Source of the DNA: a virus
Lineage: Duplodnaviria; Heunggongvirae; Uroviricota; Caudoviricetes
DNA length: 64,000 nt
Reading direction: 5' to 3' (one strand)
Virus record (IMG/VR): IMGVR_UViG_3300012347_000377
Span: 224,674-288,673 of that record
Each line of letters starts with the position of its first letter. Position 1 is the first letter of the stretch. The position numbers were made by a program, and so were the translations under genes. Shown piece by piece: positions 4,642 through 35,761 of the stretch. The notes beneath the pieces are model-generated. The model ran no database searches and was not told the origin of the DNA. It saw only the letters and a list, made by a program, of their open reading frames with translations.

Positions 4642-4647
4642 AATATT

Positions 4648-7280: not shown

Positions 7281-7289
7281 GAGAAACAA

Positions 7290-7658: not shown

Positions 7659-7681
7659 TTTAAAAATGAAGGAATAAAATT

Positions 7682-8539: not shown

Positions 8540-8551
8540 GGAGAACAAACA

Positions 8552-8860
8552 ATGGCAGAAGAACAAGAAAATGGTGGTGGAACATCACTTAAAAGTATTT
8601 TAATCGGTTTAGTGAGCACAATTACAATTGCAGTTGGTGGATTTATTACTAACAAATTAACTGGCGAAGGTGGAAACGAACCTGCTCCGGTACAACAAGC
8701 AGCACCTGTAATTAATATTACAAACTCTAACCAACAACAACAAAGTGCTGGAAAGACAGTAATTATTAAAGAAAAGGCTGCACCTGCATCTGCAAGTGGT
8801 AATCAAGCAAAACCAGTTGAAAAAGCAAAACCAAAAGAAAAAGAAGACGAAGAGTGGTAA
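8552..8860 (+). CDS. Single-pass membrane protein with low-complexity tail
   Basis: TM segment SILIGLVSTITIAVGGFI followed by a Q/P/K/E-rich tail. Confidence 0.5.
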   Translation: MAEEQENGGGTSLKSILIGLVSTITIAVGGFITNKLTGEGGNEPAPVQQAAPVINITNSNQQQQSAGKTVIIKEKAAPASASGNQAKPVEKAKPKEKEDEEW

Positions 8861-8934
8861 AATAAAAAATAAAGGTTGTATTAATTGTTTCATAGAGGGG
8901 TTATGGTAAATAAATAAAAAAGGAGAAACAAATA

Positions 8935-9192
8935 ATGGCATTTAAAGACATTTTTAAAGACAGTAACGAATATAACGAAAAATCAATCGTTGGATTCGCA
9001 TCATTTGCAGTTATGGTAGTATTTGCAGGAGCAGATATAGTAACTGGTATAATGGGACAACAATTGGAAATTAGTGATACTATTTTCAATTCATTCGTAA
9101 TTATTACATTGGGTGCATTTGGTATCGCTGAAGCTGGTAAAGTATTTAGTGATAAAAAATCATCTGATTCTAATGAAGAAGAATTAGGATAA
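8935..9192 (+). CDS. Putative holin (two TM helices, charged termini)
   Basis: 85 aa, two hydrophobic segments, acidic C-tail, close to the endolysin. Confidence 0.5.
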   Translation: MAFKDIFKDSNEYNEKSIVGFASFAVMVVFAGADIVTGIMGQQLEISDTIFNSFVIITLGAFGIAEAGKVFSDKKSSDSNEEELG

Positions 9193-9197
9193 TTAGT

Positions 9198-9428
9198 ATG
9201 AAAAAGTTACTACAATATTGGAAAGACAACCAGCAATGGTTGGCTTTCTTGTTGATGATAATATATCTAAATGGGTTTTTTATTATTTTAGAAGAACAAA
9301 TGAGAACCATATACTGGTTACCTATTGTTTGGTTATTTCAATTTTTTGGATTAGCCGGATGGTATTCATATGTTGCTAATAAAAAAGGATGGAAACTACC
9401 TAGAGATATAAAGAATACACATAGTTAA
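9198..9428 (+). CDS. Small membrane protein
   Basis: Two hydrophobic, aromatic-rich segments. Confidence 0.45.
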   Translation: MKKLLQYWKDNQQWLAFLLMIIYLNGFFIILEEQMRTIYWLPIVWLFQFFGLAGWYSYVANKKGWKLPRDIKNTHS

Positions 9429-9443
9429 AATAAAGGATACTTA

Positions 9444-10160
9444 ATGAAAAAAATCATATTACTATTAGTATGCGTATTATTTACACATATTACATTTGCA
9501 CAAATCGGAACTATTAAAGCAGAAAAATATCAATCGGAGTTTGAAAAAAAACAATCAATTGAAGACGTATCTGATTATGATGGTAAACCAATCCCAATCG
9601 CATTATTAAACATCTCAGCAACAGATGAGGTATATCAAATGTGGCCAGATTTAAAAGATGCTAGAATTGGGTTGGGTGTAACTAATATGGTAATTGAATA
9701 TTTAGAATATACCAATCGTTTTCAATTTGTAGAAGAAAAATCTGAAATTAAAAACAGAATGAAAGACCAATGGAAAGCATCTAAAAAAGGTGTATCTGAA
9801 AATGAAGTTTATGGGTTTGGTAAAATTAAATTAGCAAACTATTTTGTTACGATTGAGATATATGATTTTTCAGTTTCGGAAGATGAAGTTCTTTCTTTAA
9901 AAGAAGGTTCTAAACAAACACAAACAACAAGATTAGGATTACAAGTTCGTTTTACTAATGCAATCGATGGAACATATTTCGTAGGTTCTGGATTAGGGGA
10001 AGCAAATACCGTTAAAACTCAAGAAGGTATTTTGGGTTTAGATGTTGAGGAAATTAAATTTAGACAATCTGCAATTGGAGTTACTACTCGTAAAGCATTA
10101 GAAACTGCATCTGCACGTATTGTAAGTAGATTAATTAAAAAAGGTGTATTCCCTAACTAA
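9444..10160 (+). CDS. CsgG/HfaB-family envelope protein
   Basis: Signal peptide; LGVTNMVIEYLEYTNRFQFVEE; YFVTIEIYDF; RLGLQVRFTNAIDGTY..GSGLGEA. Confidence 0.7.
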   Translation: MKKIILLLVCVLFTHITFAQIGTIKAEKYQSEFEKKQSIEDVSDYDGKPIPIALLNISATDEVYQMWPDLKDARIGLGVTNMVIEYLEYTNRFQFVEEKSEIKNRMKDQWKASKKGVSENEVYGFGKIKLANYFVTIEIYDFSVSEDEVLSLKEGSKQTQTTRLGLQVRFTNAIDGTYFVGSGLGEANTVKTQEGILGLDVEEIKFRQSAIGVTTRKALETASARIVSRLIKKGVFPN

Positions 10161-10162
10161 AT

Positions 10163-11626
10163 GTGATAAAAAAATTATTATTCATATTATTATTATCATT
10201 CATAGGTTTGAGTGGGTATGGTCAAACTACCTTTACTCAAACCTTTGTTGATAGATGCACGGGTGATGTAAAAGTAGTTACTGCAACATTTGTAAATGGA
10301 AGAGCAACTATAGCTTTTTATAATCGAATTAGAGTATTTACTCAACAAGAAGTAACCAACGGAACACTTCAACTTTGGTTAACCGAAACTTATAATTGGT
10401 GGTATGCACTTTCACCATGTTCGGTTGCAACTCAACAAGCACAACAAGCTCAACAAACTGCTCAACAAGCCCAACAAGCAGCTCAAACTGCATCTCAAGC
10501 AGCATCACAGGCTGCATCTGCCGCATCTGCCGCATCATCTGCAGTTTCAAATATACCCGCAGTTCCACCGGTGAATGTTCCACCTCCACCACCCGCAACA
10601 CCACCATCAACACCTGCATCTCCACCACCTACAAATAGTAGTTCACCACCTCCTGCACAAAATGGGGGTAGTTCTTCATCATCATCTTCATCATCATCTT
10701 CATCATCATCTTCGTCTTCATCATCTTCAGCATCTGAAACTAAGACAGAAACAAAAACTGAAACTAAAACAGAAACTAAGACCGAGACAAAAACTGAAGA
10801 AAAGAAAACAGAATCTAAAACAGAAACTAAAGAAGAGAAAAAGGAAGAATCCAAATCCGAAACTAAAGAAGAAAAGAAAGAGGAAAAAAAGGAAGAAACT
10901 AAAGAAGAGAAAAAGGAAGAGAAGAAGGAAGAAAAGAAAAAAGAGGATAAGAAAAAGGAAAAACAACAAAAACGTGCATCTGCACCACCTATAATGGTAA
11001 GTGGTGATATGATTGGAATGCAAAGTTTAACAGGTGGAATTGATGCAGTTCTTTCGGTTGGTATGAGTAAATCATCTATATTTGGTGATAGAAGTTATAA
11101 CGTAGGAACTATGATATGGTCTAATCTCCAACAATTCAGTTTATCAGCATCTACTGCTAAGATTTATATGACATCTGATTACAGAGTAAGTGGTATAGAA
11201 TCAGTATCAATTTCATATTCAAATAATTTTGGAACTAACGCAACATCTATGTCAATGAGTTGGATTGAACCTATGAGTGGTAGAAAAGGAACGTTTGGAA
11301 TTGGTTTTAATGGTTCTGCAGTTTGGGGTGATATGATGGATTATGGAACTTATAATATTGGTTGGAATGCATTATATACAAATTCGTTTAAGGTTGGTAG
11401 AAATATAACATATTCCCCAGCGTTTATTATAACCAATACACCTATTAATGCAGTAAATCAAAAACAAGAATTTAATGGTGATGCTATGTTTATTTTATCC
11501 AACGGATTTACTATACAATTAACTAAACGATTTGTTGTCAATTTCAATTGGACTGGTATAAAATCTACTAATGAATCATTACCCCTTATAAATTCATTCA
11601 TTATAGGATCAAAAATAAATTTATAA
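10163..11626 (+). CDS. Exported protein with long low-complexity stalk and C-terminal outer-membrane beta-barrel-like domain
   Basis: Signal peptide; AQQ repeats, poly-Pro, poly-Ser, (ETKT)n/(EEKK)n; C-terminal ~210 aa of alternating beta-strand pattern ending SFIIGSKINL. Confidence 0.55.
   Translation: MIKKLLFILLLSFIGLSGYGQTTFTQTFVDRCTGDVKVVTATFVNGRATIAFYNRIRVFTQQEVTNGTLQLWLTETYNWWYALSPCSVATQQAQQAQQTAQQAQQAAQTASQAASQAASAASAASSAVSNIPAVPPVNVPPPPPATPPSTPASPPPTNSSSPPPAQNGGSSSSSSSSSSSSSSSSSSSSASETKTETKTETKTETKTETKTEEKKTESKTETKEEKKEESKSETKEEKKEEKKEETKEEKKEEKKEEKKKEDKKKEKQQKRASAPPIMVSGDMIGMQSLTGGIDAVLSVGMSKSSIFGDRSYNVGTMIWSNLQQFSLSASTAKIYMTSDYRVSGIESVSISYSNNFGTNATSMSMSWIEPMSGRKGTFGIGFNGSAVWGDMMDYGTYNIGWNALYTNSFKVGRNITYSPAFIITNTPINAVNQKQEFNGDAMFILSNGFTIQLTKRFVVNFNWTGIKSTNESLPLINSFIIGSKINL
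10670..10965 (+). repeat. Coding low-complexity repeats (poly-Ser TCA/TCT; ETKT and EEKK units)
   Basis: Visible in the DNA and in the translation of 10163. Confidence 0.9.
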
Positions 11627-18954: not shown

Positions 18955-19502
18955 TGATAAAATTAAAAGATATGATAAGTAGAAGTTTATTCGTAGAATC
19001 AAAAAAATTAAGGATATTTGATTTTGATGATACTCTTGTTAAAACAACATCTTTCATATACATCACACATTCAGATGGTAGAAAATCAAAATTAACTCCT
19101 GGTCAATATGCAGTGTATGTAGAAAGACCGGGTGATGTATTCGATTTCAAAGATTTTAATCAGGTTAAGAATCCTCAAGAAATTACTAAAATAACAAATA
19201 TTCTTAGAAACATAGTTAGAGTTAGTGGTGGTGAGGGTGTTTATATTTTAACCGCTCGTTCTGCAGCAGAACCAATTAAAAAATATCTAAGAGATATTGG
19301 AATTAATTCTAATAAAATATTTGTAGTTGCATTAGCATCTAACAATCCAAAAGATAAAGCAGATTGGATTGAGAACAAAATTGACAACGAAGGATATGAT
19401 GATATTTACTTCGCAGATGATTCTGAAAAGAATGTTGAAACTGCAAAACAAATGTTAAGAAGAAAAGATGTTCGTTGGAGAGTTCAACAAATAAAACACT
19501 AA
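18954..19502 (+). CDS. HAD-superfamily phosphatase (PNKP-phosphatase/RNA-repair-like) with MIKLKD leader
   Basis: IFDFDDTLV (motif I), ILTAR (II), K, FADDSEKN (IV). Confidence 0.75.
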   Translation: MIKLKDMISRSLFVESKKLRIFDFDDTLVKTTSFIYITHSDGRKSKLTPGQYAVYVERPGDVFDFKDFNQVKNPQEITKITNILRNIVRVSGGEGVYILTARSAAEPIKKYLRDIGINSNKIFVVALASNNPKDKADWIENKIDNEGYDDIYFADDSEKNVETAKQMLRRKDVRWRVQQIKH

Positions 19503-19558
19503 ATTATATTTTGTAATCATTTTCTGATATTTATATAAAAATAAAGGGAGTATGATAC

Positions 19559-19780
19559 ATGAAAAGGTTTTTAACAAAATGTTCGGAGTTATTATTTAAA
19601 GGATTTTTAGTATTCACTTTTATGTGGATTTCATTTGCATTGATATTCGATGCATTCTTTGTCTACCTACACTTCACTAATCCAGAAAAAGGACAATACT
19701 ATTCAAATGAAATAATGGTGAGAATCGATGGAACGTATAAAAACAATCCTAAAAGTATTTGGTATGTAAACCAAAAATAA
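19559..19780 (+). CDS. Small membrane protein
   Basis: One long TM segment. Confidence 0.4.
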   Translation: MKRFLTKCSELLFKGFLVFTFMWISFALIFDAFFVYLHFTNPEKGQYYSNEIMVRIDGTYKNNPKSIWYVNQK

Positions 19781-19867
19781 TTATTTAGATTGTATCTTCA
19801 ATCAAATTAAATAACGGAAAACTCTAATTTATATATTTATATCATATAAAGAAATATTCTTAGTATT

Positions 19868-21433
19868 ATGCCGTCATCATCAAAACAACAACAGAAATTT
19901 ATGGGTATGGTTCATGCACTTCAAAAAGGTGATATGAAACAATCTGATGCATCCCCTGAATTAAAGAAGGTAGCAAAGGATATGAATCCATCTGATGTTA
20001 AAGATTTTGCATCTACTAAACATAGTGGATTACCAAAAAGAGTAAAGCAAGAAATTGTAAAAAGATTAAAAGAATATGCAATGATGATTCCCAATCATCA
20101 AACACAACCATCTGCTCCCGCAGATTCTTTACGTTCCGATGATGAAATGGATGTAAATGAAAATTTCCCGGCAAATTGGTTAGTAGGTAGAGTTTCTGAT
20201 CAACATAGTAAGTTGGGAACAACTCCTAGAGAAGATTACGATGATACTAATTTTGATAAAGAGGATTCTGGACAAGAAGATTTAGAAAACGAAAATATGA
20301 ACGAAGCACCTGAAATTAAAACCATCACTAAAAAAGAATGGTCAAAGATTAAAAATTTCAATAAACACATCGGACAAGATGGAACTCATTATGTAATGGC
20401 TTATAATGATAAAATTGGAACACATTTAAATCCAGTAAAAATTGTAAAAGAATCTACATTAAACGAAGATAATTGGAAAGCTGAGAAGAATTCTATTTTC
20501 TTAAATGGTAGTAAAGTTGGTGATTATTCATATGATAGAGATTCTGATGCTTTTTGGATGGATAATATTAAAGGTTCAGGTCAAAAATCATTTGATACAA
20601 CTAAAGAAATGCTTCAATTTATACAAAAACATAAATCTGATTATCTAAAAGCTAGAAAGGCTTATATTGGTAAAGGATATATGAAAGAAACTACTAATCC
20701 GGCTGATATTATAAAAGATTTGGATAAAGTAAGACACGATTTGATTAAAAAGGTAGATGTATTAATTGCTAAAAAGAAAAAACTTTATTCTAATGTTGAT
20801 ATTGAATCACCAATGTCTGCAGATGAAAAACAATTAGATAAAGATATACAATCTATATTCTCACAAATACAACAACTAATTCAACAAAAAAGAAAAATAA
20901 AGACTGAATCATTAAACGATGAACTTTCTGGTAATGATTTGGAAATGGTTGTTGGTATAATTGATATTTTAAAACAAGTTAAAGATAAAGAAAATAGAAA
21001 AGAAATTGCTTTAAATATGATTAAGCAATTTAAAGAAGAGGATATTGATTTTGATTATTCTAAATTCTTATCACAATTAAAAGAGTATGGTTCTAATTTA
21101 ACCGATACTTTCTTATTACCACGTCATTCTGATAAATTACCTGGTACACCTGCAGATAAAAATGCAATTGATAATCCAGATTCCGAAAGTGGTAATTTAT
21201 ATGAAGTAGGATTGGGTGATTGGCATTTCAAAGCAATTCAAAAATTATATCAAAAAGCAGGTTCATTTGGTAGAAAGAAAATAGCAGCAGTAATTACTAA
21301 AAATCCAAATTCGAATTGGAGTAAAATCGAAAGAGAATTACAAGATTCAGACTATTACGAAATTTCAGATTATAGTGATAAATTAGGATTGAGTGAAGTT
21401 GTTGAAAATTTGATTAAAAGAAAAAATAAGTAG
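19868..21433 (+). CDS. DUF3008-like N-terminal domain, multi-module putative head protein
   Basis: MPSSSKQQQKFMGMVHALQKG...VKDFASTKHSGLP; many xNE/xKE junctions. Confidence 0.55.
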   Translation: MPSSSKQQQKFMGMVHALQKGDMKQSDASPELKKVAKDMNPSDVKDFASTKHSGLPKRVKQEIVKRLKEYAMMIPNHQTQPSAPADSLRSDDEMDVNENFPANWLVGRVSDQHSKLGTTPREDYDDTNFDKEDSGQEDLENENMNEAPEIKTITKKEWSKIKNFNKHIGQDGTHYVMAYNDKIGTHLNPVKIVKESTLNEDNWKAEKNSIFLNGSKVGDYSYDRDSDAFWMDNIKGSGQKSFDTTKEMLQFIQKHKSDYLKARKAYIGKGYMKETTNPADIIKDLDKVRHDLIKKVDVLIAKKKKLYSNVDIESPMSADEKQLDKDIQSIFSQIQQLIQQKRKIKTESLNDELSGNDLEMVVGIIDILKQVKDKENRKEIALNMIKQFKEEDIDFDYSKFLSQLKEYGSNLTDTFLLPRHSDKLPGTPADKNAIDNPDSESGNLYEVGLGDWHFKAIQKLYQKAGSFGRKKIAAVITKNPNSNWSKIERELQDSDYYEISDYSDKLGLSEVVENLIKRKNK

Positions 21434-21458
21434 TTATATTAATAAAAAAGGTTACGAA

Positions 21459-22283
21459 ATGATTATTTCTTCAAAAATATACCCTACGGATACTAATGTA
21501 TTTATAACAATACAAAAAGTTGCATCCACCTTATTGGGTAGTTTATTTGATGACTCGGAAAAAACAGGTATGGGATTCGATTATTCTATCGATATTCAAA
21601 ACAAAAAAATAATTTGTGCAGAAAATGTAATTGGAACATTACAACAAAAAGTTTTAAATGAGTTTGATGCTATTTTTTCTAACACATCTGATAAAAATAT
21701 AATAATTCTTTATAGAAATCCCATAAATAGATTAAAATCATCCATAATTGAAGATTTTAATAGTATAATTACCAGCACAGATCATACTGATTTTACTCAA
21801 GATTTATTATTTAAATTATTTGATGCATCTCCTAGAGTACAAGAATTTATAAAAGTTAATGCAGATTCTTTTTATTTATCAGAATTTGATGAAACTGATG
21901 ATGAAATAATTAATTTTTTAAAAAAATCATTTTCTTTTTATATAGAATTTTTATCTAATTCAAATTTTAATAATGCCCACTCCAATGATTATTTGAAAAA
22001 TTTCTACAATCTAATTCATTCGAATATTTTTGATGAACGTAGGATAATTTTATGTGATATTGATTCCAAACTACTAACCCCATTATTGAATAAATTTTCA
22101 ATATTTCCTGATTATGAAAATCATACACATAGTAATGGTATATTTTTACCAATTATAGATCAAATACTATCAGATATAACTAATACTAATATTTATTCAA
22201 AATATACTGAAAAAATACAATCAGAATATGAATATTATGAGTTATTAAAAAAACATACAAATAATTTTAAAATAGAAAAATAA
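21459..22283 (+). CDS. Sulfotransferase (Sulfotransfer_2-like)
   Basis: 5'-PSB-like ITIQKVASTLL and 3'-PB-like LYRNPINRLKSSI; adjacent to APS kinase. Confidence 0.55.
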   Translation: MIISSKIYPTDTNVFITIQKVASTLLGSLFDDSEKTGMGFDYSIDIQNKKIICAENVIGTLQQKVLNEFDAIFSNTSDKNIIILYRNPINRLKSSIIEDFNSIITSTDHTDFTQDLLFKLFDASPRVQEFIKVNADSFYLSEFDETDDEIINFLKKSFSFYIEFLSNSNFNNAHSNDYLKNFYNLIHSNIFDERRIILCDIDSKLLTPLLNKFSIFPDYENHTHSNGIFLPIIDQILSDITNTNIYSKYTEKIQSEYEYYELLKKHTNNFKIEK

Positions 22284-22284
22284 T

Positions 22285-22755
22285 ATGGTATATTGGTTTA
22301 CGGGTCAACCTGGTGCCGGTAAAACGGTTTTAGGTAAAAAGTTACATAAGTTTTTAGAAACAGAAAAACGCAATTGGCGTAAAAACGTATTTCACTTAGA
22401 TGGTGATAATCTTAGAGATATTACTAATAACAAAGATTATTCCGAAGAAGGTAGAAAGAACAACATCAGAACTGCACAGACAATAGTCGAATATCTACAC
22501 TTAAATAGATGCGATGTTGTCGTTTCATTAGTTGCACCATTCATAGAATTAAGAGAAGAGTTGAAAGACAAAATAGGACCTGATATGGTTGAAATTTTCG
22601 TGCATACAACCGAACCAAGAGAACGTGATCATTTTCATGTTAAAGATTACGAACCACCTCAAGTAAATTTTATCGATATAAACACTACAAAGGATTCGCC
22701 TGATATTTCATTTTCAAAATTAATCAATCATTTGAACAAATTAAAGAAATTGTAA
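22285..22755 (+). CDS. cysC: Adenylylsulfate (APS) kinase
   Basis: WFTGQPGAGKT; LDGDNLR; DYSEEGRKNNI; VSLVAPF; YEPP. Confidence 0.88.
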   Translation: MVYWFTGQPGAGKTVLGKKLHKFLETEKRNWRKNVFHLDGDNLRDITNNKDYSEEGRKNNIRTAQTIVEYLHLNRCDVVVSLVAPFIELREELKDKIGPDMVEIFVHTTEPRERDHFHVKDYEPPQVNFIDINTTKDSPDISFSKLINHLNKLKKL

Positions 22756-23543
22756 TGAATGAAATTATCTGTATAGGAACATCATTTACCGAAGGTGGTG
22801 GGTTATATGATACTGAAGTTAAGGAATATTATAAAAAACTTAACATCATATATGATAAACAATCTGAAGTGGCGTGGCCATCTCATTTAGGTAAGTTATT
22901 AAACATCCCAACAAGAAATTTGGGTAAATGTGGAAGTGGTATTGATTACTTAATCAGAAATGTAGAAGAAATCATAGAACACGAAGATGTATCCGATAAA
23001 TTATTTATTTTGGAATACTCTGGTTGGGGTAGAACTGAACTATGGGATAGTAATCGTAATAAATACATTATTACTAATTGGGGCCCACGCGATGGTAATG
23101 ACCCTAAAAACGAAGGTTATGCAGTGATGATGACTACTGATTATACCTATGGTGAACAATTGGAACATAGCAAATTTAAATTATGGGAATCGTTTTTAGA
23201 TTCACATTTCAATGAAGCAGATTATTTAATCAGTAGAGATAAACAATTCATAAATTTATTATATAAACTACAACACAAGCAAATTAAATTTTTAGTAATA
23301 TATCTTGAAAGTTGTTTTTGGGAAGGATTATATGATGAATCTGTAATAATTGAAAATTCTTTATTTATGACAAAAGATAATACTAAAGTATCGCATTCAG
23401 TTCCGTTTGGATTATCGTATTTAGTATCAAATAATGGTAATCGTATATCTGATATGTTACCTGAAATAAATGATACACATCCTAATATAGAAGGTCATAT
23501 TAGTATTGCAAATGAAATATACACTAAATTAAAAAAAATATAA
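22755..23543 (+). CDS. SGNH/GDSL-fold protein (paralog 3)
   Basis: IGTSFTEGGG; NLGKCGSG; DTHPNIEGH. Confidence 0.72.
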   Translation: MNEIICIGTSFTEGGGLYDTEVKEYYKKLNIIYDKQSEVAWPSHLGKLLNIPTRNLGKCGSGIDYLIRNVEEIIEHEDVSDKLFILEYSGWGRTELWDSNRNKYIITNWGPRDGNDPKNEGYAVMMTTDYTYGEQLEHSKFKLWESFLDSHFNEADYLISRDKQFINLLYKLQHKQIKFLVIYLESCFWEGLYDESVIIENSLFMTKDNTKVSHSVPFGLSYLVSNNGNRISDMLPEINDTHPNIEGHISIANEIYTKLKKI

Positions 23544-23923
23544 TGAACAAAAAATACGCACTTTACATCGGTAGATGGCAAAATTGGCATTCAGGTCATC
23601 AATGGTTAATAGACCAACAATTTCAAAAAGGTAATAACGTTTGGATTGCTATTAGAGATGTTGATAGAGATGATAATAATCCTAAAACTGCAAAAGAGAT
23701 ATTGGATAATCTGACAGAAGAATTAAAAGGTTATTTATCAACAGGTAGATTGTACATTTCAATTATTCCAGATATTGAATCGGTAAATTATGGTAGAGGT
23801 GTAGGTTATGATGTAATCTACCACGAACCACCAACTGATATTGCATCAATTAGTGGAACTGCGATTCGTACGGGACATATGAAAGCAGATGGAACTCTTA
23901 CTTATGATGAAAATAAAGGATAA
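23543..23923 (+). CDS. HIGH-superfamily nucleotidyltransferase (cytidyltransferase-like)
   Basis: IGRWQNWHSGH (HxGH) and ISGTAIR. Confidence 0.8.
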   Translation: MNKKYALYIGRWQNWHSGHQWLIDQQFQKGNNVWIAIRDVDRDDNNPKTAKEILDNLTEELKGYLSTGRLYISIIPDIESVNYGRGVGYDVIYHEPPTDIASISGTAIRTGHMKADGTLTYDENKG

Positions 23924-24144
23924 TGTTAGTAGAGAAAAAACGGCACATTGCTAAAACCATCTCATATCGTGTTTTAAGCACGCTTGTAGGGTTTCTTTTA
24001 ATGTGGTGGATAAGTGGTTCAATTAAAGTTGGAACTGCATTTGGTATTGCAGAATTAGTATATAAACCGATTCAATATTATCTCCACGAACGTTTATGGT
24101 ATAAGTGGATTAAATTCGGATTGAAGAAAGATGACAAAAATTAA
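23923..24144 (+). CDS. DUF2061-like small membrane protein
   Basis: RHIAKTISYR...YYLHERLW. Confidence 0.75.
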   Translation: MLVEKKRHIAKTISYRVLSTLVGFLLMWWISGSIKVGTAFGIAELVYKPIQYYLHERLWYKWIKFGLKKDDKN

Positions 24145-25009
24145 ATATATAAATTGTTTCGGAACATCTAATACTGCAGGTGGTGGGTTTGAATTTGATT
24201 CACCAACTCAAGGTTGGTTCATCAATAGCTTATATGGGCACATACCAAACGAAGAAAAAACAATTTTCAATTTTTCTTACCCAGGTCAATTACAAAAGTT
24301 AGTTTCCAAAAATATAAAGGTTAATAACTATGGTAAACAGGGGTGTGGCAATGAACGTGTAGTTCGAAAATCATATGAAATCATCGATGGCTGGGGATTT
24401 AATAAAGATGAACATATTTTTATATTTGAAATTACTGGTTTAGGTAGGAGAGAATTTTTCTTTAATAAACTCAATGAACATATAATATGTAATTATCAAA
24501 TTGATGAAAATAATAAAGCAGTTTTCACAGCAACTGCAAATCATTATAACTATGATTCAGATGAAACTATTAAATTATTAGAATCATATGACCCGTTTTT
24601 CAAAACTTATTTAACTGATTTTTTTGATATTAAAAATGAAGTTGATGAACATAGAAGAACGATAGATTTTTTTCTAGCATATTTAGATTCTAAAAATATA
24701 AATTATTATTTTACTATGACTCCTACAACACATGAATATCGAAAATCATGTGAATTTTTATTTGGAGATGGTAAGTATTTTCAGCAAACAAATGATATGA
24801 TGGATTTTTCATTCTTTAATAAATTAACAATTAAAGATGAAACCAATAAACAATCGAATGATATGCATATTGGGTTGAAGGGAAATAAAATAATTGCAAA
24901 TGTAATTTATAATAAACTTGTAACCGATGGTTTATTAAATACTCCAATTAAGGAAATTGATTGGGAGACATACAAAAACACAAAATATATTATACCAAAA
25001 GTTATATAA
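24131..25009 (+). CDS. SGNH/GDSL-fold protein (paralog 4)
   Basis: FGTSNTAGGG; NYGKQGCGN; DMHIGLKGN. Confidence 0.7.
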   Translation: MTKIKYINCFGTSNTAGGGFEFDSPTQGWFINSLYGHIPNEEKTIFNFSYPGQLQKLVSKNIKVNNYGKQGCGNERVVRKSYEIIDGWGFNKDEHIFIFEITGLGRREFFFNKLNEHIICNYQIDENNKAVFTATANHYNYDSDETIKLLESYDPFFKTYLTDFFDIKNEVDEHRRTIDFFLAYLDSKNINYYFTMTPTTHEYRKSCEFLFGDGKYFQQTNDMMDFSFFNKLTIKDETNKQSNDMHIGLKGNKIIANVIYNKLVTDGLLNTPIKEIDWETYKNTKYIIPKVI

Positions 25010-25012
25010 GTT

Positions 25013-26050
25013 ATGGAATTGATAAAACCAAATGTCCGAAACGAGTGGGGACAATTAAGAGAGATTATTGTTGGAACTGCAGAATACGCACAAGTTCCAA
25101 CCAAAGGAGATAAATGTTTACATTCAATTGATTATGCACACCTTTCGGATGAAGAGTTTGCAAATAGACCAAGTGGATTATATCCTCAAAAGTTAATTGA
25201 TGAAACAAGAGAAGATTTAGATGGTATTGCAGATACACTTCGTTCATTGGGAGTGAAAGTTCATAGACCAGAGGTTAGGGATTTCTCACAACCTATTATA
25301 ACTGAAAATTGGGAAGTAGATGGTTATTACAATTATTGTCCAAGAGATTCAATGTTTGTGGTAAATGATAAGGTAATCGCAACACCTATGACATTACGTC
25401 ATCGTTCAAACGAAGCAGAAACTTGCAAACCATTATTTGATCAAAATCATTGGGTAGATGCACCGAAACCAAAATTGTTAGATTCTATATATCAGAGAGA
25501 AGACCTTTCACGTCCAACTCTTTTAGATGGAGAACCAGTATTCGATGCAGCTAATGTAATTAAACATAATAACGATATTCTTTATTTAGTTTCCAATACA
25601 GGTAATAAAGATGGTGCTAAATGGTTAGAAACTTATTGTAAAGAAACATTTGGTAATGAATACAACGTTCATTTAGCAGAAAATGTTTATGCATATATTC
25701 ACATCGATACTACTTTTGTATTTTTAGGTGAAGGTAAAGTTCTATTGAATCCATCTCGAGTTAGATGGCAAAACCTACCTGAATTCTTAAAAGATTTTGA
25801 TAAGATTTGGGCACCAGAACCATATCCAACACAAGTATTAAATGATTGGTGTCCTGCATCACCCTGGTTAGGTATGAATATTTTACCAATTAATGATAAA
25901 TTATGTATGGTAGAAGAACATCAAACTTTACTAATGATGGAATTGAAAAAGTGGGGTATTGAATCTATACCAACAAAGATGAGACATGCACGAACATTTA
26001 GTGGTGGTCCTCATTGTGTCACGTTGGATGTAGTTAGAGATGAAAAATAA
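25013..26050 (+). CDS. Amidinotransferase (glycine/inosamine-phosphate amidinotransferase family)
   Basis: NEWGQLREIIVG; YCPRD; FDAAN; HIDTT; GGPHCVTLD. Confidence 0.9.
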   Translation: MELIKPNVRNEWGQLREIIVGTAEYAQVPTKGDKCLHSIDYAHLSDEEFANRPSGLYPQKLIDETREDLDGIADTLRSLGVKVHRPEVRDFSQPIITENWEVDGYYNYCPRDSMFVVNDKVIATPMTLRHRSNEAETCKPLFDQNHWVDAPKPKLLDSIYQREDLSRPTLLDGEPVFDAANVIKHNNDILYLVSNTGNKDGAKWLETYCKETFGNEYNVHLAENVYAYIHIDTTFVFLGEGKVLLNPSRVRWQNLPEFLKDFDKIWAPEPYPTQVLNDWCPASPWLGMNILPINDKLCMVEEHQTLLMMELKKWGIESIPTKMRHARTFSGGPHCVTLDVVRDEK

Positions 26051-26105
26051 CGGAAACTCTATCAAAAAATTATAATACACTATACTTATATTAAATAACA
26101 TTAGT

Positions 26106-26672
26106 ATGGAAAATAATAAACACGATAAAATATTCCCAAATTACGATCCAACATCCGATTTATCTCAAGCAAGTAAATCACGAAGATTGAAACGTGGATT
26201 GGGTGCACAACCTCTGTTAGAATCAGAAATCAAAGCAGTTCAACAAAAGGCTCGTTCCGCAATGGAAGCAGCACGTATCTTAGGAGTGTCATTCAACACA
26301 TATAAAAAATACGCACGAAAATATGGTATATTCGATGATTTAAAAAATCCCGATGGTATTGGTATTCGTAAAGGATATAATATTAAAAGAGGTAAATTTT
26401 CATTAGATGATATTCTAAAAGGAAAATATCCAGAATATCCCGTATGGAAATTAAAACAAAGATTATTACTTAATGGTTATATGTTAGAAAAATGTAATAA
26501 TTGTGGATTTGAAGAACGCAGAATTACTGACAATAAAGTTCCATTAGTATTAGATTTTTTAGATGGGAATAAGACAAATCATTTATATGATAATTTGAGA
26601 ATGTTATGTTTCAATTGTTCATTCTTAGTAAATGGAAATCTAACCGGTCCTAAAGCAGAATATAATTACTAA
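26106..26672 (+). CDS. HTH + Zn-binding HNH-like protein, catalytic His apparently substituted
   Basis: SAMEAARILGVSFNTYKKY; CNNC...LVLDFLDGNKTNHLYDNLRMLCFNC. Confidence 0.65.
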   Translation: MENNKHDKIFPNYDPTSDLSQASKSRRLKRGLGAQPLLESEIKAVQQKARSAMEAARILGVSFNTYKKYARKYGIFDDLKNPDGIGIRKGYNIKRGKFSLDDILKGKYPEYPVWKLKQRLLLNGYMLEKCNNCGFEERRITDNKVPLVLDFLDGNKTNHLYDNLRMLCFNCSFLVNGNLTGPKAEYNY

Positions 26673-26676
26673 AATA

Positions 26677-26708
26677 TTTGGAAATACCAAAAAGTTTTCG
26701 TATCTTTG
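26677..26708 (+). promoter_or_regulatory. Bacteroidota primary-sigma promoter
   Basis: TTTG-N20-TATCTTTG. Confidence 0.8.
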
Positions 26709-26728
26709 TATAAATTAAATAAGAAACT

Positions 26729-27043
26729 ATGAGTTATATTATCGGAAAGACATGCGATGGAGTATGTGATACTGCATGTGTCACTGTCTGTCCAGTAGAT
26801 GTCATCAATGGCCCTATACACATCGATGGTGTGGGTAAAGAGGTACATGGTATGAGTGATGAGGAAAAGAAAGGATTGCAACTTTACATAAACCCAGAGG
26901 AATGTATTTTATGTGGTGCCTGTATTCCTGAATGTCCGGTTGATGCAATATTCGAAACTGAAGAAGAAGCAATTGCAGCAGAAGGAAATGATGAATCCGT
27001 TCGTAAAAATTACGCATTCTATGGTATGGAATGGAAAGGGTAA
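26729..27043 (+). CDS. Ferredoxin (4Fe-4S dicluster type)
   Basis: CDGVCDTACVTVCP and CILCGACIPECP. Confidence 0.9.
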   Translation: MSYIIGKTCDGVCDTACVTVCPVDVINGPIHIDGVGKEVHGMSDEEKKGLQLYINPEECILCGACIPECPVDAIFETEEEAIAAEGNDESVRKNYAFYGMEWKG

Positions 27044-27060
27044 AAAAATAATAAAAAAAG

Positions 27061-27092
27061 TTTGGTAAATTCAAATTTTTTTAGTATCTTTG
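27061..27092 (+). promoter_or_regulatory. Bacteroidota primary-sigma promoter
   Basis: TTTG-N20-TATCTTTG. Confidence 0.8.
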
Positions 27093-27135
27093 TAAAATAA
27101 ATAAATATATAATAATATAATCTAAAAAACAAGTT

Positions 27136-27348
27136 ATGAACAAGTATTTTGAAGTAATCGTTGAAGTGGTAGTTGCAACACAAAAAAATGGCAAAGACAA
27201 GAAAGCAAAAGAAATCTATTTAGTAGATGCACAATCTGTGACTGAAGCAGAAGCAAGAGTAGTAAAAGATTTTGAAGAGGCTGGAGTTCAAATTGATTAC
27301 AAAGTTAGTGGAGCAAAGGAATCCCGCGTAATTAGGGTAATTGAATAA
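27136..27348 (+). CDS. DUF4494-like protein (single domain)
   Basis: NGKDKKAKEIYLVDAQSVTEAEARV. Confidence 0.7.
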   Translation: MNKYFEVIVEVVVATQKNGKDKKAKEIYLVDAQSVTEAEARVVKDFEEAGVQIDYKVSGAKESRVIRVIE

Positions 27349-30575: not shown

Positions 30576-30749
30576 ATGTCATACATTGTAAAGTATTTAT
30601 CAAATATTGAAGATTTGAAAAGGGAATTGGAAACAACACCTGAAAATATCAGATATTATGCTAAATATGAAGGGTTCGAGGGTTCATCTGAATCCATTGA
30701 TTACATTGATGAGAAATTAGCAGAATACATTCTAAACAAATCTAAATGA
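30576..30749 (+). CDS. Small hypothetical protein (57 aa, not in track)
   Basis: Manual translation MSYIVKYLSNIEDLKRELE...; stop overlaps the next ATG. Confidence 0.5.
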   Translation: MSYIVKYLSNIEDLKRELETTPENIRYYAKYEGFEGSSESIDYIDEKLAEYILNKSK

Positions 30750-32071
30750 TATATCCATTTTCTATATTGGATACTCGTACTAAGGAATGGAAAGATAGAA
30801 AAAATTGGTGGATACAAACCCACAATATTCAATCTGAACTTGGTAGAGAAGAAACTCAATCTAAAACCATATTTTGGGAATCGGAAACAAACGTATCAGT
30901 TTTCGATCCATTTTTATGCGAGTTGATGTATGATTGGTTTTGTCCAAAAAATGGTAGAGTATTAGACCCATTTGCAGGAGGAAGTGTAAGAGGAATCGTA
31001 GCATCAGAAATGGGATTTAACTATACCGGTATTGATATATCCTATACACAAATAAAAGCAAATAAATTGCAATCTTATAAACCCGATTGGATAATTGGCG
31101 ATAGTAATGTTGTATTAGATTATTTAAGTGATGATGAATATGATTTTGTATTTACTTGCCCACCATACCATGATTTAGAAATATATTCAGATAATCCAAA
31201 AGATATTTCAACTATGGGTTATGATGAGTTTTTAGTATCATTGGAATCTATATTATCTAAATCAGTTTTCAAATTGAAAAACAATCGATTTGTCGGTATA
31301 GTTGTATCTGAAATCAGAGAACAATCTAAGACCGGAGATTATAAGATTGGTAAGTATCGAGGGTTCGTCCCATCCGTTATTCAAATGTGTGAAAAAATGG
31401 GATTATCATTTTACAATGATATGATACTAATGAATTCACAGCATCAGGCAAGTAGAGTTGCAAAGACATACTTTGATAGAAATAGAAAAACGGCATCAAT
31501 TCACCAAAACATCTTAATTTTCGTAAAAGGAAATCCCGATATAGCAACAGAACTAATTACAAATGGAAACAATTTCATATGTTCTGTTGATGGTATTCAG
31601 TATCGTTCATTTAGAGAAGCAGCAATATCAATCAATCCCAACGAATTGGTTGCATCTGAAGTTGAAAGAAGATGTCGTTCCACTAAATCCAAATATAAAG
31701 ATTGGCAAATCATCGGTGAAGAAACGAATCCACATATAAAATACGAAGTAGATGGTATTCCATTTGAAAATCCTAAACAAATATCAGATTTAATAGGAGG
31801 AGATTTTACCGAAACTATGGCTAGAAACCGAATTGAATCCAATAACCCACAATACAGACATTGGAAAAGGGTAGATATTAAAGATATTACTTATATGAAT
31901 ATGAAAGAAATGTGGGAACAGAATATCCGGTTGGATTTACCTACAATTTCATGCGAAGGTATTGAGTTTCAATCAATTAAGGATGCAGCTAAATACTTCA
32001 ATTTATCTGATGAAAGGATTAGACAAAAATTGAAAGACCCCAACGAAAAAAACTTCAAAACTTTATACTAA
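30746..32071 (+). CDS. Amino-DNA methyltransferase (N6A/N4C type) with C-terminal NUMOD1-like HTH repeats
   Basis: VLDPFAGGS (motif I); FTCPPY (motif IV); repeats DGIQYRSFREAA / DGIPFENPKQIS / EGIEFQSIKDAAKYF. Confidence 0.75.
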   Translation: MIYPFSILDTRTKEWKDRKNWWIQTHNIQSELGREETQSKTIFWESETNVSVFDPFLCELMYDWFCPKNGRVLDPFAGGSVRGIVASEMGFNYTGIDISYTQIKANKLQSYKPDWIIGDSNVVLDYLSDDEYDFVFTCPPYHDLEIYSDNPKDISTMGYDEFLVSLESILSKSVFKLKNNRFVGIVVSEIREQSKTGDYKIGKYRGFVPSVIQMCEKMGLSFYNDMILMNSQHQASRVAKTYFDRNRKTASIHQNILIFVKGNPDIATELITNGNNFICSVDGIQYRSFREAAISINPNELVASEVERRCRSTKSKYKDWQIIGEETNPHIKYEVDGIPFENPKQISDLIGGDFTETMARNRIESNNPQYRHWKRVDIKDITYMNMKEMWEQNIRLDLPTISCEGIEFQSIKDAAKYFNLSDERIRQKLKDPNEKNFKTLY

Positions 32072-32146: not shown

Positions 32147-34249
32147 ATGACACAATATTCAAACAAATCACATTCATCTTACTGGTTACGCGATTGGGAC
32201 GAAGATGAAATCATTTCAAAAAGCTTTACTGAAAACGAACGTAAAACACATGACCTTTATAAGTTATCAGGTGTTCAACGTGCTATTTCCAACTTCGTAA
32301 ATATCGTAACGAATCAACAAATTCCTGTGAAGTTTAACACTCGTGGTAATTCTTACACCGATGGTGAGGTTGTTGTTATTGGTGCTAATGTAGTTGAACC
32401 GAAAGATTTTGATGTGGCAGTAGGTTTGGCACTTCACGAAGGTTCTCACATTAAATTATCCGATTTTAACTTACTACAAAACATTTATAGTTTAGTTCCC
32501 AAATCGGTTACGGATGATGCAATTAAATTGGGAATTTATAATTCAATTGCTACCATCAAAAATCTTTGGAATTATGTTGAAGATAGACGAATTGATAATT
32601 TTGTATTCAACTCAGCTCCTGGTTATCGTGAGTATTATCGTTCTATGTATGATAAGTATTTCAATGACCCGATGATTGATAAAGGTTTGACATCAGATGA
32701 ATATACAGATGAAACAATTGATTCATATATGTTCCGAATCATCAACCTTCATAACAAAAATACTGACATTACTAAATTAAAAGGATTACCTGAAATTTAC
32801 AAATTGGTTGGATTGGGTTCGATTGACCGATTAAAATCTTCACAAGATACATTCGATGTTGCGTTAGACATCTTTAAAGTTATGTTGAATAATTTAACAC
32901 CAATTCCACAAGATGATACTAAAGATGATTCTGGTGAGGGTGAAACTGATGAAACTCAAGAAGGTGAAGGTGAAACTACTGAAGGACAAAATGGTGGTGG
33001 TGATTCAAATGAAAATGGTGAAGATTCTCCGGCTGATTCAAATGGTGGTGGTTCATCTCAAATGAGTGGTGATTCAAATGAAACTGATAATGGTGATGGT
33101 TCTATGGATGCTAGTGATGCTCCTACTATGGGTGGTAAAGAAACTAATTCAAATAGTAATGATGGTAAACCTTCAGACCTTACTCAAAAACAAAAGGACT
33201 TACTTAAAAAGAAAATCCAAAAACAAAATGATTTTATGAATGGTAATTTGACTAAAAAATCAATTACTAAAACAGAATCGAATTCATTGGATGCAATCGA
33301 AGAAGCTGGTTCTGAAGTTAAGACGGTTGGTAATGAAGTTCAAAACCCACATGGTAGATTTCAGAAGGGTACGGGATGTATCGTTATTAATAAATTAACT
33401 AAGAAGTTGTTAAACTCTGATATTTTTCCATTAACCTACATCGATTGGAATACTAAAGAGGCACGTAGACAATATGAATCTGAAGTTAATAAAGGTATTC
33501 AAATTGGAACTATCTTAGGTAAGAGATTACAGGTTAGAAGTGAATCAAGAACAACGATTTACAACAGACAGAGAGTTGGTAAAATTGATAAACGTTTAAT
33601 TTCAACATTAGGTTTTGGTAATGAAAATGTGTTTAGTATTTTCGAAACCGATTCATATAAGAAAGCCAATTTACATATTTCATTAGATGCATCTGGTTCA
33701 ATGAGTGGTGATAAATGGAGACAGACAGTAGTTAATACAATGGCTTTAATTAAGGCGGTTGATATGATTCAAAACCTTTCGGTTCAAGTTTCAATCCGAA
33801 CTACTAATAACAATTCAGTTCCTTATGTAGTTATGGCTTATGATTCTCGTGTTGATAAGATTTCTAAGGCTAAAGAAGTTTTCACTTGTATCACTCCCGG
33901 TGGAACTACTCCAGAAGGATTATGTTTCGAAGCAATTTCCAATCGATTCATCTCTGCAGGTGGTGATTTTGATTCATACTTCTTAAACATTTCAGATGGT
34001 GAACCATATTTTGAGGGTGCTGGATTTACTTATCAAGGTGAGGCTGCTTTCAATCACACTGCAAAGATGGTGAAACAAATTGAAGGAATGGGTATTAAAA
34101 CACTTTCTTACTTTGTTGCTGAAGGTGGTTATTCAAATGAACCATCGAGAGGATTCCGTAAGATGTATGGTAAAGGTGCTAAGGCTATCGATGTGACAAA
34201 CGTAGCACAAATTACTAAGACAATGAACGAGTTATTCCTTACAAAATAA
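32147..34249 (+). CDS. Metallopeptidase-like (HExxH) + acidic linker + VWA protein (CobT-like MoxR partner)
   Basis: GLALHEGSH; WNYVEDRRID; D/E/G/S linker; MIDAS LDASGSM, GGTTP, ISDGEP. Confidence 0.85.
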   Translation: MTQYSNKSHSSYWLRDWDEDEIISKSFTENERKTHDLYKLSGVQRAISNFVNIVTNQQIPVKFNTRGNSYTDGEVVVIGANVVEPKDFDVAVGLALHEGSHIKLSDFNLLQNIYSLVPKSVTDDAIKLGIYNSIATIKNLWNYVEDRRIDNFVFNSAPGYREYYRSMYDKYFNDPMIDKGLTSDEYTDETIDSYMFRIINLHNKNTDITKLKGLPEIYKLVGLGSIDRLKSSQDTFDVALDIFKVMLNNLTPIPQDDTKDDSGEGETDETQEGEGETTEGQNGGGDSNENGEDSPADSNGGGSSQMSGDSNETDNGDGSMDASDAPTMGGKETNSNSNDGKPSDLTQKQKDLLKKKIQKQNDFMNGNLTKKSITKTESNSLDAIEEAGSEVKTVGNEVQNPHGRFQKGTGCIVINKLTKKLLNSDIFPLTYIDWNTKEARRQYESEVNKGIQIGTILGKRLQVRSESRTTIYNRQRVGKIDKRLISTLGFGNENVFSIFETDSYKKANLHISLDASGSMSGDKWRQTVVNTMALIKAVDMIQNLSVQVSIRTTNNNSVPYVVMAYDSRVDKISKAKEVFTCITPGGTTPEGLCFEAISNRFISAGGDFDSYFLNISDGEPYFEGAGFTYQGEAAFNHTAKMVKQIEGMGIKTLSYFVAEGGYSNEPSRGFRKMYGKGAKAIDVTNVAQITKTMNELFLTK

Positions 34250-34272
34250 AAGATTGATAATCAATAACTTAT

Positions 34273-34301
34273 AACCCATCAATCGATGGGTTATTTTTTT
34301 T
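34273..34301 (+). terminator. Intrinsic terminator
   Basis: AACCCATC-aatc-GATGGGTT followed by a T-run. Confidence 0.8.
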
Positions 34302-34334
34302 TGTAAAAATAATCAAAAAATAATTGAATAAATG

Positions 34335-34374
34335 TTTGGATAATTCAGAAAAAAGCCCTATATTAGCTTTATAA
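34335..34374 (+). promoter_or_regulatory. Early-type promoter, TTAGCT class
   Basis: TTTG-N20-TATATTAGCTTTATAA. Confidence 0.8.
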
Positions 34375-34385
34375 GAATGAGAGAT

Positions 34386-34451
34386 ATGAAATATATGATT
34401 TTTGATTTAATGATGATGGGATTTCGGGTGTTAAAAATGTTAGGATATTAA
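34386..34451 (+). CDS. 21-aa hydrophobic micro-peptide (not in track)
   Basis: MKYMIFDLMMMGFRVLKMLGY directly behind its own promoter, GAGATATG start context. Confidence 0.45.
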   Translation: MKYMIFDLMMMGFRVLKMLGY

Positions 34452-34471
34452 CAAAAATAAACCCAAAATAA

Positions 34472-34520
34472 TTTGGATAATTCAGCATTAATTCGTATAT
34501 TAGCTAAGTAATAAGAGATA
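34472..34520 (+). promoter_or_regulatory. Early-type promoter, TTAGCT class
   Basis: TTTG-N20-TATATTAGCTAAGTAATAAGAGATA. Confidence 0.8.
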
Positions 34521-34549
34521 AACATTTAAACATATAAACAATAAACATT

Positions 34550-35761
34550 ATGAAAAAAGATTTTAATTTCGGTTTAGTAGCCAATGAGGTTTACAAAGTA
34601 GAGGCGTTCGGTAATTCATTTAAGTTAATCGATACAAAAGGTAATAAGGTTGGAACATTAGGTGCAACAACTATGACTCGTAAAGATGCCTTTAATGAAG
34701 GTAAAGCGGTTCAAGCGTTTGTGAACAAAAATGGTAAGAAAACATTCCGAAAAGTAAGTATGGATGTTTATAATAATTTAGTTGCTCCAATGAATACTGA
34801 TAATGGTAAGGTTCAATTGGAAGATAATTTTGACCATTCTGCTATTAAGGATTTTATCCACAAAAGTTCTGTATCACTTAAACCACAAGAGATGGTTATT
34901 ACGGATTTGAAATGGAAATACTTAATCCGTTCAGCAGTTCGTGCTAAAAACATTATGATGACTGGTCCTGCTGGTTGTGGTAAAACTATGGCTGCAAAGG
35001 CATTGGTTAAAGCATTAGATAGACCTGATTTCTACTTTAACTTAGGTGCAACACAAGACCCGCGTGCTACCTTAATCGGTAATACTCACTTCGATAAAAA
35101 TAAGGGAACGTTCTTCTCTCAATCAGCATTCGTTTCGGCAATCAAAACTCCAAATGCAGTAATCTTATTAGATGAGTTGAGCCGTGCTCACCCTGATGCT
35201 TGGAATATCTTAATGACCGTTTTAGATGGTGGACAACGTTATTTACGTTTGGATGAGGCAGATGGTTCACCGATTGTAAAAGTTGCTGATGGTGTAACGT
35301 TCATCGCAACTGCCAACATCGGTAATGAATATACTTCTACTCGTGTGATGGATAGAGCGATTTTAGACCGTTTCGTAACGATTGAAATGGATGTTCTAAA
35401 TGATGAACAAGAATACGGATTATTAAAATATATGTTTCCAGAAGTATCTGATGACAACTTAAAAGCAATTTCAGAAATTGCTCATCACACTCGAGTTCAA
35501 TCTCTAAGTGATGCTGGAAAAGTGACATCGATGGTTTCAACTAGAGCATCAGTTGAAATGGCTGGATTAATCTACGATGGATTTGATTTGTTCGAAGCCG
35601 CTGAGATTTCAATCTTCCCATTCTTCTCAAATGATGGTGGGGTTGATTCTGAAAGAACTTACATCAAACAATTGGTTCAAAAGTATATTAAGGATGAGAA
35701 AGCTGACCCGTTATTCAATGAGATTCCGGTGAATGAAGTTGACGAAATCCCAATGTTCTAA
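34550..35761 (+). CDS. MoxR/CobS-like AAA+ ATPase (AAA_5)
   Basis: GPAGCGKT; ILLDELSRA; FIATANIG; DRAILDRF; STR sensor. Confidence 0.9.
   Translation: MKKDFNFGLVANEVYKVEAFGNSFKLIDTKGNKVGTLGATTMTRKDAFNEGKAVQAFVNKNGKKTFRKVSMDVYNNLVAPMNTDNGKVQLEDNFDHSAIKDFIHKSSVSLKPQEMVITDLKWKYLIRSAVRAKNIMMTGPAGCGKTMAAKALVKALDRPDFYFNLGATQDPRATLIGNTHFDKNKGTFFSQSAFVSAIKTPNAVILLDELSRAHPDAWNILMTVLDGGQRYLRLDEADGSPIVKVADGVTFIATANIGNEYTSTRVMDRAILDRFVTIEMDVLNDEQEYGLLKYMFPEVSDDNLKAISEIAHHTRVQSLSDAGKVTSMVSTRASVEMAGLIYDGFDLFEAAEISIFPFFSNDGGVDSERTYIKQLVQKYIKDEKADPLFNEIPVNEVDEIPMF

Follow-up and report, generated by a model that had tools for sequence, protein, structure and literature searches.

Current knowledge ascribes the activation of sulfate to two enzyme types, Sat and CysDN. 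Sat enzymes comprise ca. 350–400 residues, contain a PUA-like N-terminal domain and carry two specific sulfate-binding signatures, Q.RNP.H..H and the GRD-loop, whereas CysD/CysN consists of a PP-loop ATPase and a GTPase. Phage genes termed 'cysC', which code for adenosine 5'-phosphosulfate (APS) kinases, are enriched in large phage genomes, transcribed in situ and have been read in terms of host assimilatory sulfate reduction (PMC10914622); a term search of the same paper found no mention of a sulfurylase or an adenylyltransferase. In contrast to this reading, the APS kinase gene considered here lies in a putative sulfation operon together with its own candidate sulfurylase and sulfotransferase. 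The window analysed, a stretch of 64,000 nucleotides with a G+C content of ca. 30%, forms the last 64 kb of the 288,673-bp complete virus record IMGVR_UViG_3300012347_000377 (direct terminal repeats; CheckV estimate 100). The candidate sulfurylase is a HxGH nucleotidyltransferase of only 126 residues, hereafter NTase (23543–23923, + strand). We consider it rather probable that NTase is an ATP sulfurylase and that the region 21459–26050 constitutes a phage operon making and using 3'-phosphoadenosine 5'-phosphosulfate (PAPS). The kinase probably receives its APS from NTase, and the phage could thus make PAPS for its own sulfotransferase.

Both catalytic signatures, HxGH (as GRWQNWHSGH) and ISGT..R, are present in NTase. 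Its AlphaFold2 (AF2) model, calculated with a predicted local distance difference test (pLDDT) value of 92, matches HIGH-motif nucleotidyltransferases with Z-scores up to 9.8 in VIA-align, such that the assignment to this enzyme class in an earlier, sequence-only reading of the locus could be corroborated. The same reading had suggested a stripped-down Sat. A profile of 38 NTase family members matches, however, archaeal nicotinamide mononucleotide adenylyltransferase (NMNAT) with an E-value of 1.3e-12 and no Sat among 70 Protein Data Bank (PDB) rows at E ≤ 10. Superposition of the model in VIA-align indicated the highest relationship to the NMNAT of M. jannaschii (Z 9.8, 30% identity), followed by NadM (9.3) and phosphopantetheine adenylyltransferase (PPAT, 9.2), in each case over nearly the whole model. 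The HIGH-type core is also common to Sat, Sat-CysC and PAPS synthase, but the Thermus ATP sulfurylase 1v47 (Z 7.7, rmsd 3.2 over 115 residues), human PAPSS1 (1x6v, Z 6.9), 4maf (Z 6.6) and 2gks (Z 6.2), compared over the whole model, rank below the former group. A Foldseek search of the model against the PDB yielded nothing at E ≤ 0.001 and the Sat family PF01747 has no match in NTase at E ≤ 1. NTase also lacks a counterpart of the N-terminal domain of Sat, and its histidines are embedded in an NMNAT-type motif (GRWQ.WH.GH), unlike those of Sat. A separate origin within the superfamily is probable. NTase is therefore a member of the superfamily of Sat with its roots in the NMNAT branch, and a derivation by reduction of Sat is not supported.

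The closest relatives of NTase, the archaeal NMNATs and NadM (MJ0541, 1f9a; 1ej2; 2qjo), share with it the motifs GR(F/W)QP(F/W)H.GH, NP.T and S.T..R. They deviate substantially in the segment following the DIE motif, which holds nicotinamide mononucleotide (NMN) in NMNAT. Ca. 33 residues of NMNAT are replaced by ca. 8 residues in NTase (profile positions 79–88, corresponding to residues 76–110 of 1f9a), and this short loop contains an invariant GR.VGY sequence with R85; a near-invariant R38 follows strand 2. NTase scores far below the cut-offs of the NMNAT models (30.4 bits versus 127 for PRK01153 and 27.3 versus 181.2 for TIGR01527). Invariant or nearly so in the family are G10, R11, Q13, H16, G18, H19, R38, P47, D77, G84, R85, V87, G88, Y89, S104, T106 and R109. 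The family is large: a near-length search retrieved 7,565 matches, and 792 clusters were counted at 50% identity.

The genetic partners of NTase are APS kinase, sulfotransferases and DUF2061 proteins and not the NAD genes that accompany NMNAT. At least 40 database proteins fuse NTase to a PF01583 APS kinase, 25 aligned in the order kinase-NTase and 15 in the order NTase-kinase. In many of these fusions the kinase half has the canonical LDGD and KGLY-lid motifs, and PHROG 10255 represents such a fusion. The genomic neighbourhood of one fused protein was inspected and proved uninformative. The pathway logic, with APS kinase fused on either side, is that of Sat-CysC and PAPS synthase. When one genome of each prokaryotic species was scanned with an 11-row NTase alignment, 155 bacterial and archaeal loci came up, distributed over Marinimicrobia, Bacteroidota, Acidobacteriota, Nitrospiraceae, Omnitrophota, Planctomycetota and marine archaea. 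Among the best 80 of them, which were examined for neighbours, APS kinase is fused to NTase or encoded directly upstream in ca. 70. The loci correspond to capsule or exopolysaccharide regions with Wzz-like, Poly_export, Wzi and epimerase genes, and sulfotransferases confirmed by Pfam adjoin the module: Sulfotransfer_5 (E 4e-48) in 16 loci, and Sulfotransfer_3 in nine Omnitrophota loci as well as in Chitinophagaceae and Pyrinomonadaceae. In Nitrospiraceae, NTase is located downstream of a Rrf2 regulator and a sulfite reductase. The module also occurs in cultured phages of Xanthomonadaceae, where kinase and NTase are fused (Xylella phage Bacata, locus L001, 4142–5318; Salvo, Sano, Suzuki and DLP_6). 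As a side aspect, genes for S-adenosylmethionine synthetase and S-adenosylhomocysteine hydrolase adjoin the kinase-NTase pair in two marine Bacteroidota single-amplified genomes (SAGs; L017, L026) and in two marine group III archaea (L033, L036), at ca. 5000–11000 of these loci.

The second line of evidence concerns the distribution of known sulfurylases. The complete phage genome was searched and contains a single APS kinase and neither Sat nor CysD. Of 35 genomes from several phyla which carry NTase, five contain Sat, five CysD or a CysD-like protein and 25 neither of them; NTase appears to fill the slot of Sat in genomes devoid of it. CysD/CysN catalyses the reaction proposed for NTase and is likewise paired with CysC, but its fold is unrelated to that of NTase, and CysD was found neither in the phage nor in most carriers. 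The complementarity is also evident within one phylum. Among 121 genomes from the phylum of locus L084 (Marinimicrobia), 78 contain APS kinase. Sat or CysD(-like) proteins, often as Sat-CysC or CysN-CysC fusions, accompany the kinase in 67 of the 73 genomes without NTase and in none of the five with NTase (Fisher p 2.2e-5, a value which overstates the independence of the cases because the five genomes appear to form one streamlined group and are unlikely to be independent). These five genomes have a size of ca. 0.9–1.0 Mb, one of them being a single chromosome record of 969,550 bp. Neither AprA nor a PAPS reductase above noise was found in them, so that no other known route to APS, including one by AprAB, is apparent in these small genomes.

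Besides the doubtful independence of the five Marinimicrobia genomes, several findings weigh against the assignment of NTase as an ATP sulfurylase within a sulfation operon. The Sat signatures Q.RNP.H..H and GRD-loop are absent from NTase, GR.VGY being the sole comparable loop, and the sequence of NTase is closest to NMNAT. In the phage kinase the lid is missing, and its TIGR00455 score of 60.7 remains far below the NCBIfam equivalog cut-off of 138.7. Replacement of the known sulfurylases is not strict, as 10 of the 35 carrier genomes also possess Sat or CysD(-like) proteins, and most carriers are metagenome-assembled genomes or SAGs of unstated completeness. As to the co-occurrence of cysC with the NTase family in phages, in 80 related phage loci the kinase gene is located directly upstream of NTase in 46, whereas 34 have no APS kinase beside the NTase-DUF2061 pair. 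Finally, the fusion in the Xylella and Stenotrophomonas phages is located beside a COG3236 gene (GTP-cyclohydrolase-II-like in Bacata) with no annotated sulfotransferase nearby, a context not obviously fitting to sulfation.

As an alternative, NTase might keep a role in NAD or coenzyme A metabolism as an adenylyltransferase for NMN, nicotinic acid mononucleotide or phosphopantetheine, with the kinase linked to it for nucleotide-cofactor synthesis and APS provided by the host. Such a role would agree with the best sequence and structure matches (NMNAT, NadM, PPAT), with the automatic names given to the family by JGI (PPAT or NMNAT) and with the COG3236 gene next to the fusion in Xylella-type phages. 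We nevertheless regard it as unlikely. The segment following the DIE motif is deleted in NTase, the score of 30 bits is remote from the NMNAT cut-off of 127, and the fusion partner is an APS kinase and neither a ribosylnicotinamide nor a dephospho-CoA kinase. Moreover, most carrier genomes show no known APS source for their APS kinase. The proposed core pathway from sulfate via APS to PAPS is retained as probable from the sequence-only reading on several indirect but mutually independent grounds, namely the fusions in both orders, the gene adjacency, the sulfotransferase neighbours and Sat and CysD not being found in the phage and most carriers, while the descent from Sat had to be abandoned.

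The kinase assigned to the second step (22285–22755, + strand, 156 residues) could be confirmed as a member of the APS kinase family, as had been read from the sequence, by a PF01583 match with 60.6 bits (cut-off 21.1, E 2.4e-16) and by its 24 PDB sequence matches, none of which falls outside APS kinases and the APS-kinase(-like) domains found in sulfate-activating enzymes, with the Synechocystis APS kinase 5cb6 as the closest (E 2.1e-11). Alignments including 5cb6 and 8a8h indicate that the P-loop, the LDGD..R motif, the Arg and Asn of the S..GR..NI segment and the ISP-type strand are retained, but ca. 18 residues of the KGLY lid are deleted, which makes the enzyme atypical. Marinimicrobia and marine group III archaea likewise have the short, lid-less form next to NTase, whereas full-length lidded kinases pair with NTase elsewhere. 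Independently, ORFs of ca. 603–616 residues were recorded (G064, G091, G098, G099, G129, G137 and G153) in which a lid-less APS-kinase-like part, matching PF01583 only at model positions 2–108, is fused to another part.

The candidate transferase is encoded directly in front of the kinase (21459–22283, + strand) and consists of 274 residues. It belongs to a rare phage family with 10 homologues among 5.8 billion clusters; neither Pfam, PHROG nor NCBIfam yielded a match and no PDB sequence is similar. In nine aligned homologues QKVAS (residues 19–23) and YR.P..R..S (residues 85–94) are invariant and Thr24 is present in eight. The AF2 model (pLDDT 80, predicted template modelling score 0.76) places QKVAS into a strand-loop-helix and YR.P..R..S into a strand followed by a helix, which corresponds to the geometry of the two PAPS-binding motifs. 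The two motifs may be equivalent to the PAPS contacts of sulfotransferases, i.e. the lysine of the 5'-phosphosulfate loop and the arginine and serine of the 3'-phosphate motif. In an exhaustive VIA-align comparison against 48,161 PDB chains, the best 16 are all PAPS sulfotransferases (146–190 residues aligned), although the Z-scores of 6.9–4.7 are modest, and Foldseek reported nothing significant in the PDB (E ≥ 0.4). The ESM Atlas model shows a TM-score of 0.55 to a Sulfotransfer_2 (PF03567) cluster. On this basis we tentatively assign a sulfotransferase fold to the 274-residue protein, with moderate confidence; motifs and structural rank speak for the earlier sulfotransferase-like label, whereas no family model matches.

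A second explanation to be weighed is that NTase and the APS-kinase-like protein produce another 3'-phosphorylated nucleotide donor, from which the sulfotransferase-fold protein transfers a group different from sulfate. A precedent exists in the O-methyl-phosphoramidate pathway of Campylobacter, in which a CysC homologue phosphorylates CDP-amidate. Among the sulfotransferases retrieved in the Atlas search with the 274-residue protein, a DUF2972 cluster of Campylobacterota (TM 0.50) also turns up, the protein has no Pfam sulfotransferase match and the phage kinase is atypical without its lid. However, the neighbours in the cellular loci are sulfotransferases confirmed by Pfam at E 4e-48, in Nitrospiraceae this place is taken by a sulfite reductase, canonical APS kinases are frequent among the fused kinases, and the window contains neither the glutamine kinase nor the amidohydrolase of the phosphoramidate route. 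Such a donor therefore appears quite improbable to us.

Returning to PAPS formation, we propose the following scenario for the operon. NTase would bind ATP via HxGH and ISxT..R and transfer AMP to sulfate, forming APS and pyrophosphate. Within the HIGH nucleotidyltransferases it might derive from the branch of the archaeal NMNATs, having lost the segment following the DIE motif and gained two invariant arginines, R38 and the R85 of the GR.VGY loop. The short APS kinase, by analogy to its family, would subsequently phosphorylate the 3'-hydroxyl group of APS to yield PAPS and thereby pull the unfavourable first reaction. Finally, the 274-residue protein, as judged from its fold, would pass the sulfate group on to an acceptor. 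The two SGNH-like proteins and the amidinotransferase encoded by the same operon probably tailor the same product.

The gene directly following NTase (23923–24144, + strand) codes for a DUF2061 protein of 73 residues with two hydrophobic helices. PF09834 matches over profile positions 1–51 of 52 with 57.6 bits (cut-off 23.1), in agreement with the membrane protein initially perceived. DUF2061 is found close to NTase in 77 of the 80 phage loci, mostly directly 3' of it. In cells, four Chitinophagaceae loci encode it as a fusion with APS kinase, and in three further loci (L040, L044, L075) it follows NTase directly. Its invariant residues, many of them basic, are K6, R7, H8, K11, R16, E44, K48, Y52, H55, E56, R57, W59. 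The prediction of a complex between NTase and DUF2061 resulted in a score of 0.01, which counts neither for nor against binding. DUF2061 belongs to the sulfate-activation module, in which one might guess it to serve as a membrane tether or as an entry route for sulfate. The small size of NTase and the fact that DUF2061 (77 of 80 phage loci) and not the kinase (46 of 80) is its tightest phage partner could also point to a non-catalytic or regulatory ATP-binding partner of APS kinase and/or DUF2061, with APS derived from the host or another source, but we consider this very unlikely, since HxGH, S.T..R and additional arginines are kept invariant or near-invariant among relatives of 32–60% identity to NTase, unlike in a degenerate domain. 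It may be added that in about one third of the related phage loci (L109, L113, L123–L128, L135 and others) the gene for a UvdE UV-endonuclease and not the kinase gene precedes the NTase-DUF2061 pair, in surroundings with genes for peptide deformylase, Hsp20, 2-oxoglutarate-Fe(II) oxygenases, tryptophan halogenase and carbamoyltransferase.

The broader interpretation reaches beyond the phage. The NTase family (110–130 residues) might constitute a third class of ATP sulfurylases of independent NMNAT-like origin and act as the sole sulfate activator in thousands of phage contigs as well as in marine lineages with streamlined genomes (Marinimicrobia of small genome size, marine Bacteroidota, marine group II and III archaea, and others). 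DUF2061 would be a membrane partner dedicated to this family, for instance by letting sulfate enter or by placing PAPS synthesis at the membrane, and phage 'cysC' would mostly mark the sulfation of phage-directed products and not host sulfur assimilation. We see the chances of this extended proposal being right or wrong as about equal. If it is true, a third enzyme type of 126 residues would explain how PAPS is formed in genomes which, despite APS kinase and sulfotransferases, are devoid of a known sulfurylase, viral 'cysC' genes would be read differently in surveys of the sulfur cycle, and a very small enzyme would become available for PAPS synthesis in vitro. DUF2061 gains its first functional context. 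Full-text literature searches revealed no description of the NTase family or of a DUF2061 function, and nothing pertinent on small or non-canonical sulfurylases or on viral cysC combined with a nucleotidyltransferase. New in the present analysis are the neighbour with a sulfotransferase fold, the two forms of the kinase, the tabulated complementarity within one phylum and the AprA check. The ATP sulfurylase idea is within reach of standard assays on two small soluble proteins.

The remaining genes of the operon concern the fate of the product. Between kinase and NTase, a SGNH/GDSL-like protein of 262 residues is encoded (22755–23543, + strand). Twelve relatives share its conserved blocks FG(T/D)SxTxGxG, GN(E/D) (the latter in the majority of rows) and D.H; some of them have the canonical FGDS, and block V reads D.H and not D..H. 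The statistics are weak (E 0.13 for Pfam Lipase_GDSL_2; E 0.29 for a GDSL protein in a PDB profile search) and the Atlas search retrieved unnamed viral clusters only, so that the SGNH label is retained at the motif level only. A paralogue of 292 residues with 25% identity and the same conserved blocks (24131–25009, + strand) follows DUF2061; its presence varies among the relatives. The final gene of the run (25013–26050, + strand) codes for a StrB1-type amidinotransferase of 345 residues, which matches inosamine-phosphate amidinotransferase 1bwd over the full length (E 1.4e-82), and also HsvA, SxtG and AGAT. In three related loci (L086, L089, L167) the amidinotransferase gene likewise follows DUF2061 or SGNH.

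The same set of genes, for amidinotransferase, sulfotransferase and APS kinase, is also that of the saxitoxin and cylindrospermopsin clusters of cyanobacteria, and the phage product may be a compound carrying guanidino and sulfate groups. The amidinotransferase may hint at a derivative of an amino sugar, a cyclitol or a polyamine. Given this StrB1-type enzyme, a small-molecule or amino-sugar product is just as possible as the sulfated glycan originally envisaged, whose use for decoration of the virion or host surface is a guess. A conserved block in Omnitrophota (L057, L064, L066; ca. 4500–9700) comprises Sulfotransfer_3, an ADI/DDAH-fold gene, the NTase-kinase fusion and methyltransferases. 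An enzyme with a guanidino-modifying fold thus recurs beside the module outside phages, although its sequence does not closely resemble that of the phage amidinotransferase.

With respect to the gene arrangement, the five ORFs recognized initially are all present on the + strand with the coordinates given for them, and their tight coupling could be verified. The operon extends beyond the previously assumed end at 24144 to include the second SGNH-like paralogue and the amidinotransferase, giving seven ORFs separated by 0–3 bases or with overlapping stop and start codons. The first two genes nearly abut (22283/22285), ATGA-type overlaps occur at 22755, 23543 and 23923, and a 14-nucleotide overlap is found at 24131–24144. 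The 274-, 262-, 126- and 292-residue proteins have no significant family match in Pfam, PHROG or NCBIfam, and a blastn search with the cassette against 50,697 phage records gave no match. A scan of 19400–27200 revealed fewer promoter-like sites than in shuffled sequences and no terminator bounding the operon. The order sulfotransferase-fold protein, kinase, SGNH-like protein, NTase, DUF2061 and amidinotransferase is kept in relatives whose sulfotransferase-fold protein is 53–80% identical; the gene of the latter is restricted to the lineage of this phage. Downstream of the operon (26106–27043), a HNH endonuclease (PHROG 14736, E 2.9e-13) and a small ORF are encoded. The same pair of 189- and 101-residue proteins also follows the operon in locus L167, where the 101-residue protein matches Fer4 ferredoxins. 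Further along the window, a 441-residue ORF (30746–32071) matches a PHROG annotated as DNA methyltransferase. At 32147–35761 two adjacent ORFs follow, one of 700 residues matching a PHROG annotated as 'cobalamin biosynthesis protein' (E 9.8e-8) and one of 403 residues matching 'porphyrin biosynthesis' and AAA ATPase PHROGs.

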